DNA of 64,000 nt from Escherichia coli (lineage in GTDB: Bacteria; Pseudomonadota; Gammaproteobacteria; Enterobacterales; Enterobacteriaceae): the NCBI RefSeq assembly GCF_009931435.1, contig NZ_CP043414.1; one strand, written 5' to 3'. The position numbers were made by a program, and so were the translations under genes. The notes under the pieces are model-generated. The model saw only the letters and a program-made list of their open reading frames with translations. It searched no databases and was not told where the DNA came from. Position 1 is the first letter of the stretch; each line of letters begins with the position of its first letter. This document shows, one piece after another, positions 1,053 to 51,955 of the stretch.

Positions 1053-3743
<2,691 letters not shown>

Positions 3744-3773
3744 TGTGTTTACTGATATGAAAAGAGTTTAACA

Positions 3774-4598
3774 ATGCAGCAGTTACAGAACATTATTGAA
3801 ACCGCTTTTGAACGCCGTGCCGAGATCACGCCAGCCAATGCAGACACCGTTACCCGCGAAGCGGTAAATCAGGTGATCGCCCTGCTGGATTCCGGCGCAC
3901 TGCGTGTAGCGGAAAAAATTGACGGTCAGTGGGTGACGCATCAGTGGTTGAAAAAAGCGGTGCTGCTCTCTTTCCGTATTAATGATAATCAGGTGATCGA
4001 AGGGGCAGAAAGCCGCTACTTCGACAAAGTGCCGATGAAATTCGCTAACTACGATGAAGCACGTTTCCAGAAAGAAGGCTTCCGCGTCGTGCCACCAGCG
4101 GCAGTGCGTCAGGGCGCGTTCATTGCCCGTAACACCGTGCTGATGCCGTCTTACGTCAACATCGGCGCATATGTTGATGAAGGCACCATGGTTGATACCT
4201 GGGCGACCGTCGGTTCCTGTGCGCAGATTGGTAAAAACGTCCACCTTTCCGGTGGCGTGGGTATCGGCGGCGTGCTGGAGCCGCTGCAGGCTAACCCGAC
4301 CATTATTGAAGATAACTGCTTCATCGGCGCACGCTCTGAAGTGGTTGAAGGGGTGATTGTCGAAGAAGGTTCCGTCATCTCTATGGGCGTATACATTGGT
4401 CAGAGCACCCGTATTTACGACCGTGAAACCGGCGAAATCCACTACGGTCGCGTTCCGGCGGGGTCTGTGGTTGTGTCAGGTAATCTGCCGTCGAAAGATG
4501 GCAAATACAGCCTCTACTGTGCGGTTATCGTTAAGAAAGTTGACGCGAAAACTCGCGGCAAAGTTGGTATTAACGAACTGCTGCGTACCATTGACTAA
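3774..4598 (+). CDS. dapD: 2,3,4,5-tetrahydropyridine-2,6-dicarboxylate N-succinyltransferase
   Basis: 274-aa ORF with hexapeptide-repeat left-handed beta-helix sequence; synteny. Confidence 0.95.
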
Positions 4599-18399: not shown

Positions 18400-19193
18400 T
18401 AAACAAAACTCACAGGTGCAGCACCCGCCGGATGCGGCAAAATACCCATCGGGATGCCATAAATCATTTCGAGGGTTTCGCCGCGCATAATTTCCGCAGG
18501 CGTTCCCTGAGCAATCATTTCACCGCCGCGCAGGGCGACCAGATAATCACAGTAACGCGCAGCCATATTGATATCGTGCAGCACGGCAATGACCGTCAGG
18601 CCACGCTCCTGACTTAAACGATGCACCAGCGCCAGCACATCAACCTGGTGGGCGATATCCAGCGCCGAGGTCGGTTCGTCGAGCAACAGACAACGGCTAT
18701 CCTGCGCCACCAGCATGGCGATCCACGCCCGTTGACGTTCGCCGCCAGAGAGGCTATCGACCAGCCGATGCGCCAGCGGTTTTAAGCCAACCAGCGAGAT
18801 AGCCTCTTCGACCTTTTCGCGATCTGCCGCGCCAAAGCGCCCCAGCGCGCCATGCCACGGGTAACGACCAATCGCCACCAGTTCACGCACCGTCATCCCT
18901 TCTGCCGGAGGAAGCTGCTGCGGCAAATAAGCCACTTTGCGAGCAAACGCTTTGCTGCTCCAGCTTTCCAGCGGCTGGGCATCAAGAAGAATCTCCCCTT
19001 CTGACGGTGGCTGATGGCGGCCCAACATTTTTAACAGCGTGGATTTACCAGAGCCGTTGTGACCAATCAGACCGGTCACTTTCCCGGCAGGAAAGGTTAA
19101 CGACAGCGGATGCAAAAGCGTGCGCCCGGGCACACGAAAGGAGATATTACGCAGTGCAAAAGTGGTATCGGAATGATTCGTGTATTCCTGCAT
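18396..19193 (-). CDS. fhuC: ferric hydroxamate ABC transporter ATP-binding protein
   Basis: ORF 18396..19235; start placed at MQEYTNHSD (265 aa); Walker A GHNGSGKST and ABC signature LSGGERQR. Confidence 0.93.
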   Translation of the reverse strand: MQEYTNHSDTTFALRNISFRVPGRTLLHPLSLTFPAGKVTGLIGHNGSGKSTLLKMLGRHQPPSEGEILLDAQPLESWSSKAFARKVAYLPQQLPPAEGMTVRELVAIGRYPWHGALGRFGAADREKVEEAISLVGLKPLAHRLVDSLSGGERQRAWIAMLVAQDSRCLLLDEPTSALDIAHQVDVLALVHRLSQERGLTVIAVLHDINMAARYCDYLVALRGGEMIAQGTPAEIMRGETLEMIYGIPMGILPHPAGAAPVSFVY

Positions 19194-24333: not shown

Positions 24334-26763
24334 TCATGAATACTTTTTCGTCCGTCGCGTCGGTGCGGTATTTGCCGGATCATCCGGCCAGACGTGTTTG
24401 GGATAACGCCCTTTCATCTCTTTTTGCACCTCGCGATACGCACCTTTCCAGAAGGCGCTCAAATCTCGTGTGATTTGCAGCGGCCTTTGGGCAGGAGAAA
24501 GCAACTCCAGCACCAGCGGCACACGCCCCTGGGCGATCGTCGGATTGGTGGCCTCGCCAAACATCTCCTGCATTCTCACCGCCAGCGCGGGCGGGTTATC
24601 TTCATGGTAACGAATGGCGATCCGGCTCCCCGTCGGCACAGTGTAATGCGCAGGCAATTCACTATCCAGACGTTGCTGCATCCCCCAATCAAGTAATCCG
24701 CGTAGCGCCTGATAAATATCGAGTGATTTCAGGCCGCGTAGCGAATGTACGCCTGCCATATGCGGCAGTAGCCACGTTTCCAGCGTCGCCAACAAACTTG
24801 CATCATCAACCGCTGGCCAGTCATATTCCGGCAACCACTTTGCGGCGCATAACAAACGCAAGCGTAGCTGTTCCGCTTCCGCCGTCCAGTTGAGCACGCT
24901 TAAACCTTTATCACGAATGCCGTTAAGCATTGCCTGATGCAACTCGTCTTCCGAGGGTTTCGCCAGCGGCTGCACTTTCACCGTCAACTGACCGATTTGC
25001 AGCCGACGCCACGCTTTCAGCGTACCTTGCGCATCATCCCACTCCACAGTGTCAGACTGCTGTACCAACTGCGGACAGCGTTGTACTAATTCATCGATAT
25101 CGACCGGTAGCGCCAGTAAAATCCGCGCATCCGGCGAGGCGCTGCCCTGCAATAATAACGGTGCGATCAACCATTCGTGGCGGCTTAGCGCATCGTCGGC
25201 ATCGAGCATTGCCCCCATGCCGTTTGCCAGTTGATAGCGTCCATCTTGCCCACGGCGACGAGCAATGCGATCGGCATACGCCCCGGCAAGTAGCGGCGCG
25301 ATAAGAGAACTGTCTGCCTCACCGCCGCGTACGTTTAAACGTTTTAACAGTTGCTGGCTACGTTGCTGCCAGGCAGGTTGATTGCGCGAAAACGCCACAT
25401 CCAGATCGATATTGCCCATCCGTGGTGGCTCTTCGAGAATAGCGGCAATTTTTGCAGCGGTAGCAGCTTCGTCGTCGCTCCTTGCGCTCACCAGCATTGC
25501 CGCTAAACGCGGATCGTTACCCAGCGTCGCCATTTTCTGCCCTTTCGTGCTTAGCCGTTCACCGTCCATCGCCCCCAGCATCCGTAACAGGCGTTTCGCG
25601 GCCTGTAAATTCACGGCTGGCGGTTGATCCAGCCAGCTCATCTGCGTCGGATCGCTGCATCCCCATTGCAGTAATTCCATCAGCAAACCGGAGAGATCGC
25701 TTTGTAAGATTTCCGGTTCACTTTGCGCGGAGGCGCGTTCTGCTTGTTCTTTGGCGATTAAATGTAAACAGATCCCCGGCTCCAGACGTCCGGCACGCCC
25801 GGCGCGTTGCGTCATTGATGCCTGGCTAATGCGTTGGGTAATCAGCCGCGTTAGCCCCGTGCGCGGATCAAAGCGCGCCACACGTTCCTGAGCACAATCC
25901 ACCACCAGACGAATACCTTCGATGGTTAAACTGGTTTCAGCAATATTGGTTGCCAGCACCACTTTGCGCATCCCTTCTGGTGCCGGAAGGATCGCTTTTC
26001 GCTGATCGTTCAGCGACAACGCGCCATACAGCGGGCAGAGCAACACATCACTACCGATGCGCGAAGCTAGTTGTTCCTGAACGCGCTGAATTTCTCCGAC
26101 ACCAGGTAAAAATAACAGTAATGAGCCGCTTTCCTGATGCAGCAATTCGGCGGTGGCAACCGCCACGGCTTCATCAAAACGCTGATGAGCGAGCAGCGGT
26201 AAATATCGGCGTTCAACCGGAAATGAGCGCCCTTCTGAGATGACGACGGGCGCTTCTGGCAGCATCTGCTGCAAGCGGTCATTGTCCAGCGTAGCCGACA
26301 TAATCAGTAGTTTAAGGTCATCACGCAGACCTTGTTGCACATCGAGTAACAGCGCCAACGCCAGATCCGCCTGCAAGCTGCGCTCATGAAACTCATCGAG
26401 GATCACCAATCCAACGCCGCTCAGTTCAGGGTCACGCTGGATCATGCGCGTCAACACGCCTTCGGTAACTACTTCCAGGCGAGTATTTGGCCCGACACAG
26501 TTTTGCGCGCGCATCCGGTAGCCTACCGTATCACCTGTTTTTTCGTTAAGCAGTTCCGCCAGTCGTTGCGCAACGTTACGCGCCGCCAGGCGACGCGGCT
26601 CCAGCAGGATAATTTTTCCGTTAATGCCGGGATGCGCCAGCAGTTGCAGCGGCAGCCAGGTTGATTTCCCGGCCCCGGTCGGCGCACTTAATAACACCTG
26701 CGGTGCACCATCGAGGGCAGCAAGTAACTCAGGTAAGACGGCGGCAACGGGCAACGACGACAC
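24334..26763 (-). CDS. hrpB: ATP-dependent RNA helicase HrpB (DEAH-box)
   Basis: ORF 24334..26808; start placed at the GTG at 26763 (VSSLPVAAV, 809 aa); motifs GAGKST and DEFH. Confidence 0.9.
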   Translation of the reverse strand: MSSLPVAAVLPELLAALDGAPQVLLSAPTGAGKSTWLPLQLLAHPGINGKIILLEPRRLAARNVAQRLAELLNEKTGDTVGYRMRAQNCVGPNTRLEVVTEGVLTRMIQRDPELSGVGLVILDEFHERSLQADLALALLLDVQQGLRDDLKLLIMSATLDNDRLQQMLPEAPVVISEGRSFPVERRYLPLLAHQRFDEAVAVATAELLHQESGSLLLFLPGVGEIQRVQEQLASRIGSDVLLCPLYGALSLNDQRKAILPAPEGMRKVVLATNIAETSLTIEGIRLVVDCAQERVARFDPRTGLTRLITQRISQASMTQRAGRAGRLEPGICLHLIAKEQAERASAQSEPEILQSDLSGLLMELLQWGCSDPTQMSWLDQPPAVNLQAAKRLLRMLGAMDGERLSTKGQKMATLGNDPRLAAMLVSARSDDEAATAAKIAAILEEPPRMGNIDLDVAFSRNQPAWQQRSQQLLKRLNVRGGEADSSLIAPLLAGAYADRIARRRGQDGRYQLANGMGAMLDADDALSRHEWLIAPLLLQGSASPDARILLALPVDIDELVQRCPQLVQQSDTVEWDDAQGTLKAWRRLQIGQLTVKVQPLAKPSEDELHQAMLNGIRDKGLSVLNWTAEAEQLRLRLLCAAKWLPEYDWPAVDDASLLATLETWLLPHMAGVHSLRGLKSLDIYQALRGLLDWGMQQRLDSELPAHYTVPTGSRIAIRYHEDNPPALAVRMQEMFGEATNPTIAQGRVPLVLELLSPAQRPLQITRDLSAFWKGAYREVQKEMKGRYPKHVWPDDPANTAPTRRTKKYS

Positions 26764-47812: not shown

Positions 47813-50203
47813 ATGGCAATTAACAATACCGGCTCGCGACGATTACTCGTCACGCTAACAGCCCTATTTGCAGCGCTTTGCGGGCTGTATCTTCTCATTG
47901 GCGGAGGCTGGTTGGTCGCGATCGGCGGCTCCTGGTACTACCCTATCGCTGGCCTTGTGATGCTCGGCGTCGCCTGGATGCTGTGGCGCAGCAAACGCGC
48001 CGCACTTTGGCTTTACGCGGCATTGCTGCTTGGCACCATGATTTGGGGCGTCTGGGAAGTGGGTTTCGATTTCTGGGCGCTGACGCCGCGTAGCGACATT
48101 CTGGTCTTCTTTGGCATCTGGCTGATCCTTCCGTTTGTCTGGCGTCGCCTGGTCATTCCTGCCAGCGGCGCAGTTGCCGCGTTGGTGGTCGCGCTGTTGA
48201 TTAGCGGTGGTATCCTCACCTGGGCCGGATTTAACGATCCACAGGAAATCAACGGCACCTTAAGCGCTGATGCTACACCTGCCGAAGCTATCTCCCCCGT
48301 TGCCGATCAAGACTGGCCTGCCTATGGTCGCAATCAGGAAGGTCAACGCTTTTCACCACTGAAACAAATTAACGCTGATAACGTCCACAAGCTGAAAGAA
48401 GCCTGGGTGTTCCGTACAGGCGATGTGAAACAGCCGAACGATCCGGGCGAAATCACCAATGAAGTGACGCCGATTAAAGTAGGCGACACGCTTTACCTGT
48501 GTACCGCTCACCAGCGTTTGTTTGCGCTCGATGCCGCCAGCGGCAAAGAGAAATGGCATTACGATCCTGAGCTGAAAACCAACGAGTCTTTCCAGCATGT
48601 AACCTGCCGTGGTGTCTCTTATCATGAAGCCAAAGCAGAAACTGCTTCGCCGGAAGTGATGGCGGATTGCCCACGTCGTATCATTCTTCCGGTCAATGAT
48701 GGTCGCCTGATTGCACTCAACGCCGAAAATGGCAAGCTGTGTGAAACCTTCGCTAATAAAGGCGTGCTCAACCTGCAAAGCAACATGCCGGACACCAAAC
48801 CGGGTCTGTATGAGCCGACTTCACCACCGATTATCACTGATAAAACCATCGTGATGGCGGGTTCCGTCACTGATAACTTCTCAACCCGCGAAACGTCTGG
48901 CGTGATCCGTGGTTTTGATGTCAATACCGGGGAGCTGTTGTGGGCCTTTGATCCAGGCGCGAAAGATCCGAATGCGATCCCGTCTGACGAACACACCTTT
49001 ACCTTTAACTCGCCAAACTCGTGGGCACCTGCGGCCTATGACGCGAAGCTGGATCTGGTGTATCTGCCGATGGGTGTGACCACGCCAGATATCTGGGGCG
49101 GTAACCGCACCCCAGAACAGGAACGTTATGCCAGCTCGATTCTGGCGCTGAATGCCACTACCGGGAAACTGGCGTGGAGCTATCAGACCGTTCACCACGA
49201 CCTGTGGGATATGGATCTTCCGGCACAGCCAACGCTGGCAGATATCACCGTTAATGGTCAAAAAGTTCCGGTTATTTACGCTCCAGCGAAAACCGGCAAC
49301 ATTTTTGTGCTTGATCGCCGCAATGGTGAACTGGTGGTTCCGGCCCCGGAAAAACCGGTGCCGCAAGGCGCAGCGAAAGGTGATTACGTTACCCCTACTC
49401 AACCGTTTTCTGAACTGAGCTTCCGTCCGACGAAAGATTTAAGCGGTGCGGATATGTGGGGCGCCACCATGTTTGACCAACTGGTGTGCCGCGTAATGTT
49501 CCACCAGATGCGTTATGAAGGTATTTTCACCCCGCCATCTGAACAGGGTACGCTGGTCTTCCCGGGTAACCTGGGGATGTTCGAATGGGGCGGGATTTCC
49601 GTTGATCCGAATCGTGAAGTGGCAATTGCCAACCCAATGGCGCTGCCGTTCGTTTCGAAACTGATCCCACGCGGTCCTGGCAACCCGATGGAACAGCCGA
49701 AAGATGCCAAAGGCACCGGTACGGAATCCGGCATTCAGCCACAGTACGGCGTACCGTATGGCGTTACGCTCAACCCGTTCCTTTCACCGTTTGGTCTGCC
49801 GTGTAAACAGCCAGCATGGGGCTATATCTCGGCCTTGGATCTGAAAACCAACGAAGTGGTGTGGAAGAAACGCATTGGTACGCCGCAGGACAGCATGCCG
49901 TTCCCGATGCCCGTTCCGGTGCCGTTCAATATGGGTATGCCGATGCTGGGCGGGCCAATCTCCACGGCGGGTAACGTGCTATTTATCGCCGCTACGGCAG
50001 ATAACTACCTGCGCGCTTACAACATGAGCAACGGTGAAAAACTGTGGCAGGGCCGTTTACCGGCGGGTGGTCAGGCAACACCGATGACCTATGAAGTGAA
50101 TGGTAAGCAGTATGTGGTGATCTCCGCAGGCGGTCACGGTTCATTTGGTACGAAGATGGGCGACTATATTGTGGCTTATGCGTTGCCGGATGATGTGAAT
50201 TAA
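47813..50203 (+). CDS. gcd: PQQ-dependent membrane glucose dehydrogenase
   Basis: ORF 47795..50203; start placed at MAINNTGSRR (796 aa); N-terminal TM helices plus PQQ beta-propeller. Confidence 0.93.
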   Translation: MAINNTGSRRLLVTLTALFAALCGLYLLIGGGWLVAIGGSWYYPIAGLVMLGVAWMLWRSKRAALWLYAALLLGTMIWGVWEVGFDFWALTPRSDILVFFGIWLILPFVWRRLVIPASGAVAALVVALLISGGILTWAGFNDPQEINGTLSADATPAEAISPVADQDWPAYGRNQEGQRFSPLKQINADNVHKLKEAWVFRTGDVKQPNDPGEITNEVTPIKVGDTLYLCTAHQRLFALDAASGKEKWHYDPELKTNESFQHVTCRGVSYHEAKAETASPEVMADCPRRIILPVNDGRLIALNAENGKLCETFANKGVLNLQSNMPDTKPGLYEPTSPPIITDKTIVMAGSVTDNFSTRETSGVIRGFDVNTGELLWAFDPGAKDPNAIPSDEHTFTFNSPNSWAPAAYDAKLDLVYLPMGVTTPDIWGGNRTPEQERYASSILALNATTGKLAWSYQTVHHDLWDMDLPAQPTLADITVNGQKVPVIYAPAKTGNIFVLDRRNGELVVPAPEKPVPQGAAKGDYVTPTQPFSELSFRPTKDLSGADMWGATMFDQLVCRVMFHQMRYEGIFTPPSEQGTLVFPGNLGMFEWGGISVDPNREVAIANPMALPFVSKLIPRGPGNPMEQPKDAKGTGTESGIQPQYGVPYGVTLNPFLSPFGLPCKQPAWGYISALDLKTNEVVWKKRIGTPQDSMPFPMPVPVPFNMGMPMLGGPISTAGNVLFIAATADNYLRAYNMSNGEKLWQGRLPAGGQATPMTYEVNGKQYVVISAGGHGSFGTKMGDYIVAYALPDDVN

Positions 50204-50215
50204 GATTGACTCATA

Positions 50216-50359
50216 TTGCTGACAAAGTGCGCTTTGTTCATGCCGGATGCGGCGAAAACGCCTTATCCGGCCTACTAAAACTCGCAAATTCAATAAATTG
50301 CAGAGTTCACGTAGGCCTGATAAGCGTAGCGCATCAGGCAGTTTTGCGTTTGTCAGCAG
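50216..50359. repeat. REP pair (BIME) in the gcd-cueO intergenic region
   Basis: GCCGGATGCGGCGAAAACGCCTTATCCGGCCTAC and inverted GTAGGCCTGATAAGCGTAGCGCATCAGGC; flanked by inverted 10-mers TGCTGACAAA / TTTGTCAGCA. Confidence 0.8.
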
Positions 50360-50404
50360 AATAATGCCCGGAGAGATCCGGGCATATTTCCGAATACGGT
50401 CTTT

Positions 50405-51955
50405 TTATACCGTAAACCCTAACATCATCCCCGTATCTTCATGCTCCAGCAGATGGCAGTGCGCCATATATGCATGTTCTTTCGGGGCGTCATGATTAAA
50501 CTTCACCAGGACTTCGCTGACATTACCTTCTACCTTAACGGTATCTTTCCAGCCTGCGCGATGCGTCGCTGGCGGTTTGCCATTTTCCGACAAGATACGG
50601 AACTGCGTACCGTGGATATGGAACGGATGCAGCATCATGTCGCCCACGCCAGAGATAACCCAACGCTCGTACTGCCCTTTTGCTGCCGCAAACATCGGCT
50701 TGTTCATATCAAACGCCTGACCGTTGATTTTATTGGCATGGTGGAAATCGAACTTCCCGTCGTGGTTCATATGATTCATATTGCCGTGCCCCATATGGCC
50801 CATCATCTGGCTGTGGTCCATCCCGGCCATCGCCTGATCGCCATATTTCTCCATCAGCATCTGCATACCAATCATATCGAGCATCGGGTCCATAGAGAGT
50901 TGCAGCTTGCGTACCGTTAATCCATCCAGCGAAGGTAACGCTGGCAGGCTACCTAACGCGTCAGGTAAGGCACCTGAAGCACTAATGGAAATCGGCTGGA
51001 TCCGCATTACCGGATGCGGCTTGTCAAACGGTGCAATTGCCATTCCCATCTGGCTGACCGGTAGCGTCACCAGATCAAAGGGTTTGTTGTCGTTAACCTC
51101 CACCAGCACTTCGAAACGCTCGCCCATCAGCACCGGCAGCTCGCTCACCTTCACTGGTTCAGGTAGCAGACCACCGTCGCTGGCAATCACATACAGCGGG
51201 CGATTGTCACTGGTAGCGAAATTGAGCGAGCGGGCGTTACAGCCATTGAGCAAACGCAGGCGCAGCCAGCCGCGCGGGGCGGCGTGTTGCGGGTAGATAG
51301 CACCGTTGGTCAGCAGCGTATCGCCAAACCAACCCACGGCAGCGGTCATCACATCCAGTTGATAATCAATCTGCCCGTCAGCGTTAAATTTTTTATCCTG
51401 CACGATCACCGGGACATCATCGATACCCCACTGTTTTGGCAGCATTAATTTTAGAATCTCGTCATCTTCAATCACTACCAGCCCCGCCAGCCCCATCGCC
51501 ACCTGTCGCCCGGTTTTGCCATGTTGATGCGGATGGAACCAGCAGGTAGCGGCAGGTTGATCAACGTTCAACGTCACCGTACGCTTGCCACCTGGCGGAA
51601 TAATTCCCTGCGGGCCGCCGTCGACTTCACCCGGTACTTCCAGCCCGTGCCAGTGCAACGTCGTTTCTTCCGTCAGTTGGTTATAGATATCAACCGTTAC
51701 CGCTTTGCCGCGCTGTAATTTCACCGCCGGCCCCAGCAGATTGCCGTTATAGCCCCAGGTAGTTGCCGTTTTTCCGGCAAAGGTGGACTGGCCTGTGCCA
51801 ACAGTTAACTGAATACGATTGCGGGCATCAGTCGTGAGCAAATCAGGGATCGGTAACGTTGGACGCTCCGCCGCAAATACTGCGCGGCTCCACAGCGGCA
51901 AGGCTGAAGCTACGCCCAGCGCAATGGAATATTTCAAGAAATCACGACGTTGCAT
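50405..51955 (-). CDS. cueO: multicopper oxidase CueO (Tat-secreted)
   Basis: ORF 50405..51994; start placed at MQRRDFLK (twin-arginine signal); copper-binding HxH motifs and Met-rich segment. Confidence 0.93.

Follow-up and report, generated by a model that had tools for sequence, protein, structure and literature searches.

The inverted repeat framing the REP pair between gcd and cueO of Escherichia coli probably belongs to the outer flanks of a BIME-1 element

The gcd–cueO spacer and the class of its repeat

The window (the whole stretch of Escherichia coli chromosome that was analyzed, 64 kb in length) contains the convergent genes gcd (plus strand) and cueO (minus strand), which bracket a spacer composed as follows.

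47795–50203, plus strand: gcd open reading frame with its stop codon TAA at 50201–50203, annotated as gcd in matching E. coli records
50204–50211, plus strand: 8-nt stretch GATTGACT from the gcd stop codon to the element; conserved at background level only and different in paralogous copies
50212–50364: whole BIME-1 (RIP/RIB-type) unit of 153 nt, comprising left flank, Y REP, L linker, Z1 REP, and right flank
50212–50240, plus strand: left outer flank CATATTGCTGACAAAGTGCGCTTTGTTCA (family consensus CAGATTGCTGACAAAGTGCGCTTTGTTCA)
50217–50226, plus strand: left arm of the framing inverted repeat, TGCTGACAAA
50241–50275, plus strand: Y-type REP (palindromic unit) TGCCGGATGCGGCGAAAACGCCTTATCCGGCCTAC, its CCTAC end (CTAC tag) towards the linker; columns ∼100% conserved
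50276–50310, plus strand: L linker of 35 nt, with the linker motif that is invariant in the family
50311–50340, plus strand: Z1-type REP GTAGGCCTGATAAGCGTAGCGCATCAGGCA, inverted relative to Y, its GTAGG start (GTAG tag) at the linker
50341–50364, plus strand: right outer flank GTTTTGCGTTTGTCAGCAGAATAA (family consensus ATTTTGCGTTTGTCATCAGTCTCA)
50349–50358, plus strand: right arm of the framing inverted repeat, TTTGTCAGCA
50364–50385: terminator-like hairpin ATGCCCGG-AGAGAT-CCGGGCAT, with an extended imperfect stem at 50359–50390
50405–51955, minus strand: cueO coding sequence with its stop codon at 50405–50407; the encoded protein is 97% identical to E. coli CueO

The components of the original prediction, which had been made from the letters of the window, were an inverted repeat, two inverted REP units, and a second palindrome in the spacer, and all of them are present. 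The palindrome had been placed correctly at 50364–50385, and the arms do lie outside the two REP palindromes, as had been stated. The arm sequences had also been given correctly, but their positions (50216–50225 and 50350–50359) were off by 1 nt from the actual ones (50217–50226 and 50349–50358). The arm pair TGCTGACAAA/TTTGTCAGCA is a perfect 10-nt inverted repeat with 122 nt between the arms. The locus carries one, non-tandem BIME-1 copy, which is 89.6% identical to the family consensus over the whole unit (50212–50364) and ∼100% identical to the family columns in both the Y and the Z1 REP. The linker sequence, GCAAATTCAATAAATTGCAG, agrees with that of the family; it contains an IHF-like core (ATTCAATAAATTG, 50288–50300), 12 of whose 13 positions agree with the IHF consensus WATCAANNNNTTR. 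At 50277–50318, the Rfam family ES036/CssrF matched with 41.3 bits (gathering score, 37.6). A consensus scan for promoters and terminators across 50000–50600 called nothing, and the K-12 feature table (NC_000913.3) lists no repeat feature for the gcd–cueO spacer. With the A before it included, the stretch GATTGACT looks like a degenerate tandem duplicate of the first 9 nt of the element (AGATTGACT followed by CATATTGCT, 50204–50220; in K-12, AGACTTGCT followed by CAGATTGCT, 405–421 of the fetched piece L003). The last codons of gcd (TGCCGGATGATGTGAA, 50184–50199) match the start of the Y REP (TGCCGGATGCGGCGAA, 50241–50256) at 13 of 16 positions, which may be chance.

The object between gcd and cueO is an ordinary, already catalogued BIME-1 (RIP/RIB). 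The element has reportedly also been named RIP (by Oppenheim in 1993) and RIB (by Boccard and Prentki in 1993), and its outer flanks are said to have been described as "A" and "B" motifs by Gilson et al. in 1991 and by Bachellier et al. in 1994 and 1999. In BIME-1, y and z1 are joined by a conserved L linker containing an IHF site (PMC3333891), and the window element likewise has one Y and one Z1 in inverted orientation, the GTAG/CTAC tags of which face a conserved L linker with an IHF consensus. It is also, like BIME-1 in general, a single copy of ∼140–150 bp that is present or absent as a whole; it lies between the convergent genes gcd and cueO. Nothing essential differs; a private T-to-G exchange makes the 10-nt core perfect, and the right terminus has diverged. 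The conserved span of 153 nt found here agrees with the published BIME-1 size of ∼140 bp (PMC1187871), which exceeds the ∼100 bp of Y, L, and Z1. That the outer flanks are part of the unit is implicit in this size, so the framing repeat does not fall outside the usual description of the composite element.

BIME-1 is, at the same time, a REP-doublet repeat of the REPIN type. The REPINs of Pseudomonas fluorescens (Bertels & Rainey, 2011; PMC3116915; PMC3337134) are also made up of two inverted REPs and a spacer for which one long hairpin is predicted, and they are non-autonomous units thought to be moved by a single-copy RAYT; the E. coli RAYT (yafM/tnpA-REP), the gene for which lies outside the window, is present in two-thirds of the genomes of this species (Ton-Hoang, 2012; PMC3333891). 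In contrast to REPINs, the enterobacterial doublet is asymmetric, Y differing from Z1 with a 1-nt indel (PMC8049555), and BIME-1 has a long linker with an IHF site and conserved outer flanks of ∼25 nt.

The framing arms in the BIME-1 family

Copies for a conservation profile were collected by scanning a single genome of each species for the central linker motif alone, so that the flanks were not used in their choice. The scan yielded ∼100 copies, in Escherichia (coli, albertii, whittamii, and two further species) and in Pseudocitrobacter. Among the 82 non-identical ones, the majority-base frequency rose from a background of 30–45% to 65–85% at 50212, reached ∼100% over both REPs and the greater part of the linker, amounted to 58–84% across the right flank, and was back at background after 50364; the arm columns were conserved at 48–80% each. 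Because conservation rises at 50212 and falls after 50364, the repeated unit comprises 153 nt, and because these limits lie outside the arms, the arms are inside the unit. The bounds also agree with hairpin duplications that abut the element ends at other loci (see below). The family consensus of the unit reads (T)CAGATTGCTGACAAAGTGCGCTTTGTTCA - Y - L - Z1 - ATTTTGCGTTTGTCATCAGTCTCA. Its terminal 16 nt are an imperfect inverted repeat (13/16), of which the 10-mer originally noticed is the inner part (9/10 in the consensus). Each arm is the outer neighbor of one REP, and the left and right halves of the element correspond to inverted copies of one sequence that have diverged.

The association of the arms with the element was equally evident from individual copies. 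The paralogs at ybiA-rhlE, fepA-entD, and sbp-pfkA align with the window from ∼50210 to ∼50359, arms included, at 88–91% identity. When a 159-nt query consisting of arms and REPs was used, places covering at least 80% of it were found in all 5425 matching genomes; where the gcd–cueO element is missing, the best match was a paralog spanning query positions 7/8 to 152/156, again with both arms and at 88–91% identity. Within 839 kb of fetched sequence, the left-flank motif was followed by the Y REP in 53 of 55 occurrences (one exception is a deletion allele, the other the end of a contig), the right-flank motif was preceded by the Z1 REP in 49 of 49, and the two arms were never found joined without REPs. 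The copy at sbp-pfkA is nearly fixed (5311/5425 E. coli genomes), and no empty site was seen there. A search at torZ-cmoB with a divergent "E. coli" contig gave matches of only ∼80%. Half-sites resembling the REP occur in the window away from any BIME-1, at 18427–18438 (GCCGGATGCGGC) and 25126–25135 (CGCATCCGGC).

Taken by itself, the arm pair is only mildly unusual, since 12 distinct inverted repeats that are perfect over at least 10 nt and have loops of up to 150 nt occur in the window, or ∼1 per 5 kb; several of them are terminators. This frequency is what would speak for a chance match. Both flank sequences recur, however, next to BIME-1 at loci unrelated to this one and in other species too, with the conservation per column given above for the 82 copies, which puts the arm pair beyond chance; we assign a negligible probability to coincidence. 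The framing arms are, very probably, part of the conserved outer flanks of one BIME-1 element and travel with it.

Folding was predicted for both nucleic acids. As ssDNA, the unit folds into one hairpin, with the arms as basal 10-bp stem, Y paired to Z1, and the linker at the tip (−40.4 kcal/mol, z = −7.45). The predicted RNA fold (−87.9 kcal/mol, z = −7.25) is analogous, and in it the terminator-like hairpin stays separate. The window element thereby shows the feature by which REPINs are recognized, a doublet that folds as one long hairpin (predicted fold, z = −7.45). The suggestion that the framing repeat may be a structural feature stands to this extent, as a prediction that the arms close the whole unit into one hairpin. 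Across the 38 complete copies, 76% of the cells of the arm helix pair, compared with 23–47% for slid partners. No covariation was detected in this helix among the 38 copies: 500 column shuffles did as well in about half of the trials, and there was no compensatory excess. As shuffled columns pair equally well, the symmetry of the arms is taken to be inherited with the family, and the pairing frequency does not show that pairing is maintained.

Perfect complementarity is a peculiarity of the window allele. The family consensus has a C·T mismatch at pair 9–150, inside the 10-mer; the G at 50356, for which the family has T, is private to the window allele and creates the C–G pair in 1 of the 38 copies. 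The K-12 arms (TGCTGACAAC and TTTGTCATCA) are paired at 8 of 10 positions. The perfect match (10/10) could be viewed as an adaptation to this locus, the T-to-G exchange at 50356 having been selected to stabilize a hairpin in the gcd 3′-UTR or a DNA cruciform; the restriction of the C–G pair to this allele and the high predicted stability of the long hairpin would be in line with that. We consider such an adaptation very unlikely, because the allele is rare (4–6 of about 5460 records are ≥99% identical; 6 of 5468 over the 401 nt from 50100 to 50500), because the family shows no covariation, and because the exchange is a single substitution among the ∼27 differences from the K-12 allele.

Alleles of the spacer and age of the element

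Among 5425 complete E. coli genomes, 2739 contained the full (filled) gcd–cueO spacer, and 2376 (∼44%) an empty allele that has neither the REPs nor either of the arms and keeps the palindrome. The junction of the empty allele reads ...GTGAAGTAA-CC-ATAATGCCCGGAGAGATCCGGGCAT..., that is, TAA-CC-ATAATGCCC. A secondary-deletion allele, with KE48 and Nissle 1917 among its carriers, is found in at most 327 of the 5425 genomes (an upper bound, at least one filled genome having been counted via two joined pieces). It keeps the left flank and joins TTCATGCC directly to CGGAGAGATCC, the deletion lying between ATGCC/GGA in the Y REP and ATGCC/CGGA in the hairpin (here and below, a slash marks the point of the join or cut). 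The hairpin at 50364–50385 is present in the filled, empty, and partly deleted alleles, and also in E. albertii. In strain JNU, the transposase gene of an IS621 (IS110 family) sits in the gcd–cueO BIME-1 beside the Z1 REP (1821–2801 of the fetched piece; right junction, ...ATACA/AGGCCTGATAAG), which fits the reported targeting of REPs by this insertion sequence (Choi, 2003, from the reference list of PMC2817692). The census agrees with the statement, made in PMC1187871 with reference to Bachellier 1997, that isolates either have the whole BIME-1 or lack it.

The original prediction had also considered that the framing repeat may be a target site; the arms would then be a pre-existing palindrome, into the center of which the REP pair had inserted. 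REP dimers "inserted within palindromes" have indeed been described in other species, namely, GTAG-15 of A. variabilis and CGTC-1 of H. neapolitanus (Di Nocera et al, 2013; PMC3733652), which are framed by complementary outer sequences as is the case here, and the arms in the window are perfectly complementary. However, the arms are missing together with the REPs from the 2376 empty-allele genomes, BIME-1 copies at unrelated loci and those of Pseudocitrobacter carry the same arm sequences on either side, and the 839 kb did not contain a palindrome made of the arms only. A pre-existing target is therefore extremely improbable. In two of the three species covered by PMC3733652, framing palindromes unlinked to REPs were likewise not found; whereas the frames are called "targets" there, the empty alleles show that the frame at gcd–cueO is part of the element. 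A comparison of the junction between strains with and without the BIME, which had been proposed as a check, did not give the refuting outcome: arms without the REP pair were not seen, except for the deletion allele of the KE48/Nissle type, which retains the left arm only. As a whole, the interpretation given with the original prediction is partly supported.

The filled alleles are not uniform. Over the 401 nt, K-12 is 92.8% identical to the window, and the ∼27 differences are packed in BIME-1, the adjoining 90 nt being identical. The two copies are <86.5% identical to one another and 88–90% identical each to the family consensus; window-type and K-12-type copies are thus no closer to each other than to paralogs. 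The right terminus of the window copy has diverged (GAATAA versus GTCTCA in the consensus). The C-terminus of Gcd reads ..DDVN in the window and in E. whittamii, and ..DDVK in most E. coli. Gene conversion, or independent re-insertion at the same hairpin, is a possible reason for the two types, given such low identity at the same site right next to 90 identical nt. One old insertion followed by divergence or conversion is nevertheless favored, as both copies are identical in length, as GACT-CA-ATTG is shared with E. whittamii, and as K-12 and E. albertii share variants. The variants shared by the latter two are a C at arm position 10 and CCAGCC in the Y REP, each of which is a minority variant (∼5 of 38 copies).

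In E. albertii, most of gcd is gone, and BIME-1 is retained against the same hairpin (...GTTTTGCGTTTGTCATCAGTCTC/ATGCCCGGAGAGATCCGGGCAT). The left arm of this copy is truncated at ...CAG/ACAACGTGCGC, where a deletion joined CAGGCAAC of gcd to CTGACAAC of the arm at a microhomology. What is left of gcd there (3065–3400, minus strand, of the fetched piece L107) is a fragment without a start, and hpt is directly next to it. E. whittamii has a degenerate BIME-1 copy in a gcd–cueO spacer enlarged by other DNA. This spacer is ∼1.5 kb long (2888–4434 of the fetched piece L068); some of its ORFs look, from their sequence, like the C-terminal part of a protein of the TnpB/IS605-OrfB type (..CPECGADHDRDINAARNI..), and another ORF, of 172 aa, has a start resembling a signal peptide. 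In Citrobacter amalonaticus, looked at as an outgroup, cueO is not adjacent to gcd; a 173-aa ORF lies downstream of cueO. From this distribution, the gcd–cueO element is most likely older than E. coli, and the empty allele is most likely the later loss of the whole unit, since the unit is present in both E. albertii and E. whittamii.

Terminator hairpins at the ends of BIME-1

The second palindrome (50364–50385) is the locus's own terminator-like hairpin and lies outside the repeat. It is located 19 nt past the cueO stop codon, the right end of BIME-1 touches its first base, and its predicted fold is strong on either strand (−19.8 and −22.1 kcal/mol, z ∼ −4.5). In its GC-rich stem of 8–9 bp, its short loop, and its position between convergent genes, it resembles an intrinsic (Rho-independent), possibly bidirectional, terminator. 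It differs from one in that neither strand has a strong T/U-tract: the tails AUAUUUCC and UAUUCUGC have 4 T in 8, below the scan threshold of 5 T in 8, which is why the consensus terminator scan did not call the hairpin. We read it as terminator-like for cueO in all alleles and for gcd, whose 3′-UTR would then contain BIME-1.

Such hairpins were a recurrent neighbor of BIME-1. Direct repeats just outside both ends of the element were found at 15 of 27 independent loci with a complete BIME-1, where ∼0.3 were expected (a repeat was called when its score exceeded the 99th percentile of 702 mismatched-pair controls; the loci include L034, L042, L044, L069, L074, L082, L018/L089, L045, L015, and L049). 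At ∼10 of the 15, the repeat is 17–29 nt long and abuts both ends with a gap of 0–1 nt; it forms a hairpin of its own (−9 to −18 kcal/mol). In most cases, an A-rich run precedes the left copy, and the right copy is followed by a T-tract; one example reads AAAGGGAGCGAAAGCTCCCT, element, GGGGAGCGAAAGCTCCCTTTTTT. Two loci could be compared in both states. The lpdA-yacH site is empty in the window, where a bidirectional terminator, AAAAAAGCGGCTAACCACGCCGCTTTTTTT, occupies 59536–59564. It is filled in 494 E. coli genomes, with a hairpin on both sides of BIME-1 (AGCGGC..GCCGCT, then the element, then AGCGGCTAACAACGCCGCTTTTTTT); the loop of the left hairpin copy differs at four positions. In the yvcK/ybhK-uvrB spacer, the empty alleles have a single hairpin, CCGGAAGAATATTCCGG, and the filled ones have it either on both sides (strains 06-00048 and E69) or, in the K-12 type, on the left only. 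In this comparison, BIME-1 copies usually appeared to sit on terminator hairpins, duplicated on both sides. At gcd–cueO, no flanking duplication was found; the element is complete and has a hairpin on the right only. This one-sided arrangement fits the class of the K-12-type yvcK-uvrB allele.

In Escherichia spp., tandem arrays of three to five BIME-1-like units (Y-L-Z1 with an IHF linker; L094, L095, L098, L099, and L091) were observed as well. There, the next Y REP follows the right flank without a break, or a short local hairpin (GGGTGAGGGATAACCTCAC) recurs between units.

BIME-1 shares with MITEs such as ERIC and the Correia elements that it is short, non-coding, and multicopy, has imperfect terminal inverted repeats, forms a long hairpin, and is co-transcribed with its neighbors; it differs from them in the absence of a target duplication of fixed length and in a core that consists of REP palindromes. 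To our knowledge, there is no cognate insertion sequence with BIME-1 ends. If BIME-1 were a MITE and not a RAYT-handled REP doublet, the arms would be terminal inverted repeats for a classical (DDE-type) transposase, a view to which both the inverted repeat of the terminal 16 nt (13/16) and the direct duplications around many copies elsewhere, resembling target-site duplications, lend some weight. A DDE enzyme cuts with a fixed stagger, however, whereas those duplications vary between 17 and 29 nt, each being as long as the hairpin at its locus, and gcd–cueO has none. A DDE-type origin is thus unlikely.

The arms might instead be the true termini of a mobile 153-nt BIME-1, the target of which would be an (often bidirectional) intrinsic terminator hairpin that is duplicated as a whole on integration. 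At gcd–cueO, the hairpin at 50364–50385 would then be the target, and its left copy would have been lost or never made. We put this forward tentatively, as a scenario that falls somewhat short of being probable. TnpA-REP cleavage requires a C/T dinucleotide (PMC3333891), and each boundary between hairpin and T-tract supplies a C/T step. It is speculation that TnpA-REP would yield the duplication by cutting each strand at the hairpin's 3′ base. How REP/BIME elements insert in vivo has been stated to be unknown (PMC3333891; bioRxiv 10.64898/2026.03.23.713779). No mention of the hairpin-duplication signature was found in the literature examined, and older papers may describe it.

The arms would mark the ends of a unit that is gained and lost as a block, and presumably this unit is handled as a hairpin, with either the REP-associated Y1 transposase (TnpA-REP/RAYT) or replication slippage as the agent. 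In ssDNA or RNA, the arms are predicted to form the basal stem of one long hairpin, which encloses the Y–Z1 pairing and the linker. BIME-1 abuts the gcd–cueO hairpin just as copies elsewhere abut terminator hairpins. Where the element is in place, it may provide a structured 3′-UTR and a putative IHF-binding module for gcd, and for transcripts reading through from cueO.

Most probably, then, the framing repeat at gcd–cueO is nothing more than the usual outer portion of BIME-1; the whole unit with its arms is commonly polymorphic for presence and absence in E. coli. The case warns against reading repeats that frame REPs as targets. If reproducible, hairpin duplication, together with single-hairpin empty sites in thousands of genomes, would offer a concrete target and cut geometry for TnpA-REP. 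This signature would also explain why BIME-1 is found at the 3′ ends of transcription units.
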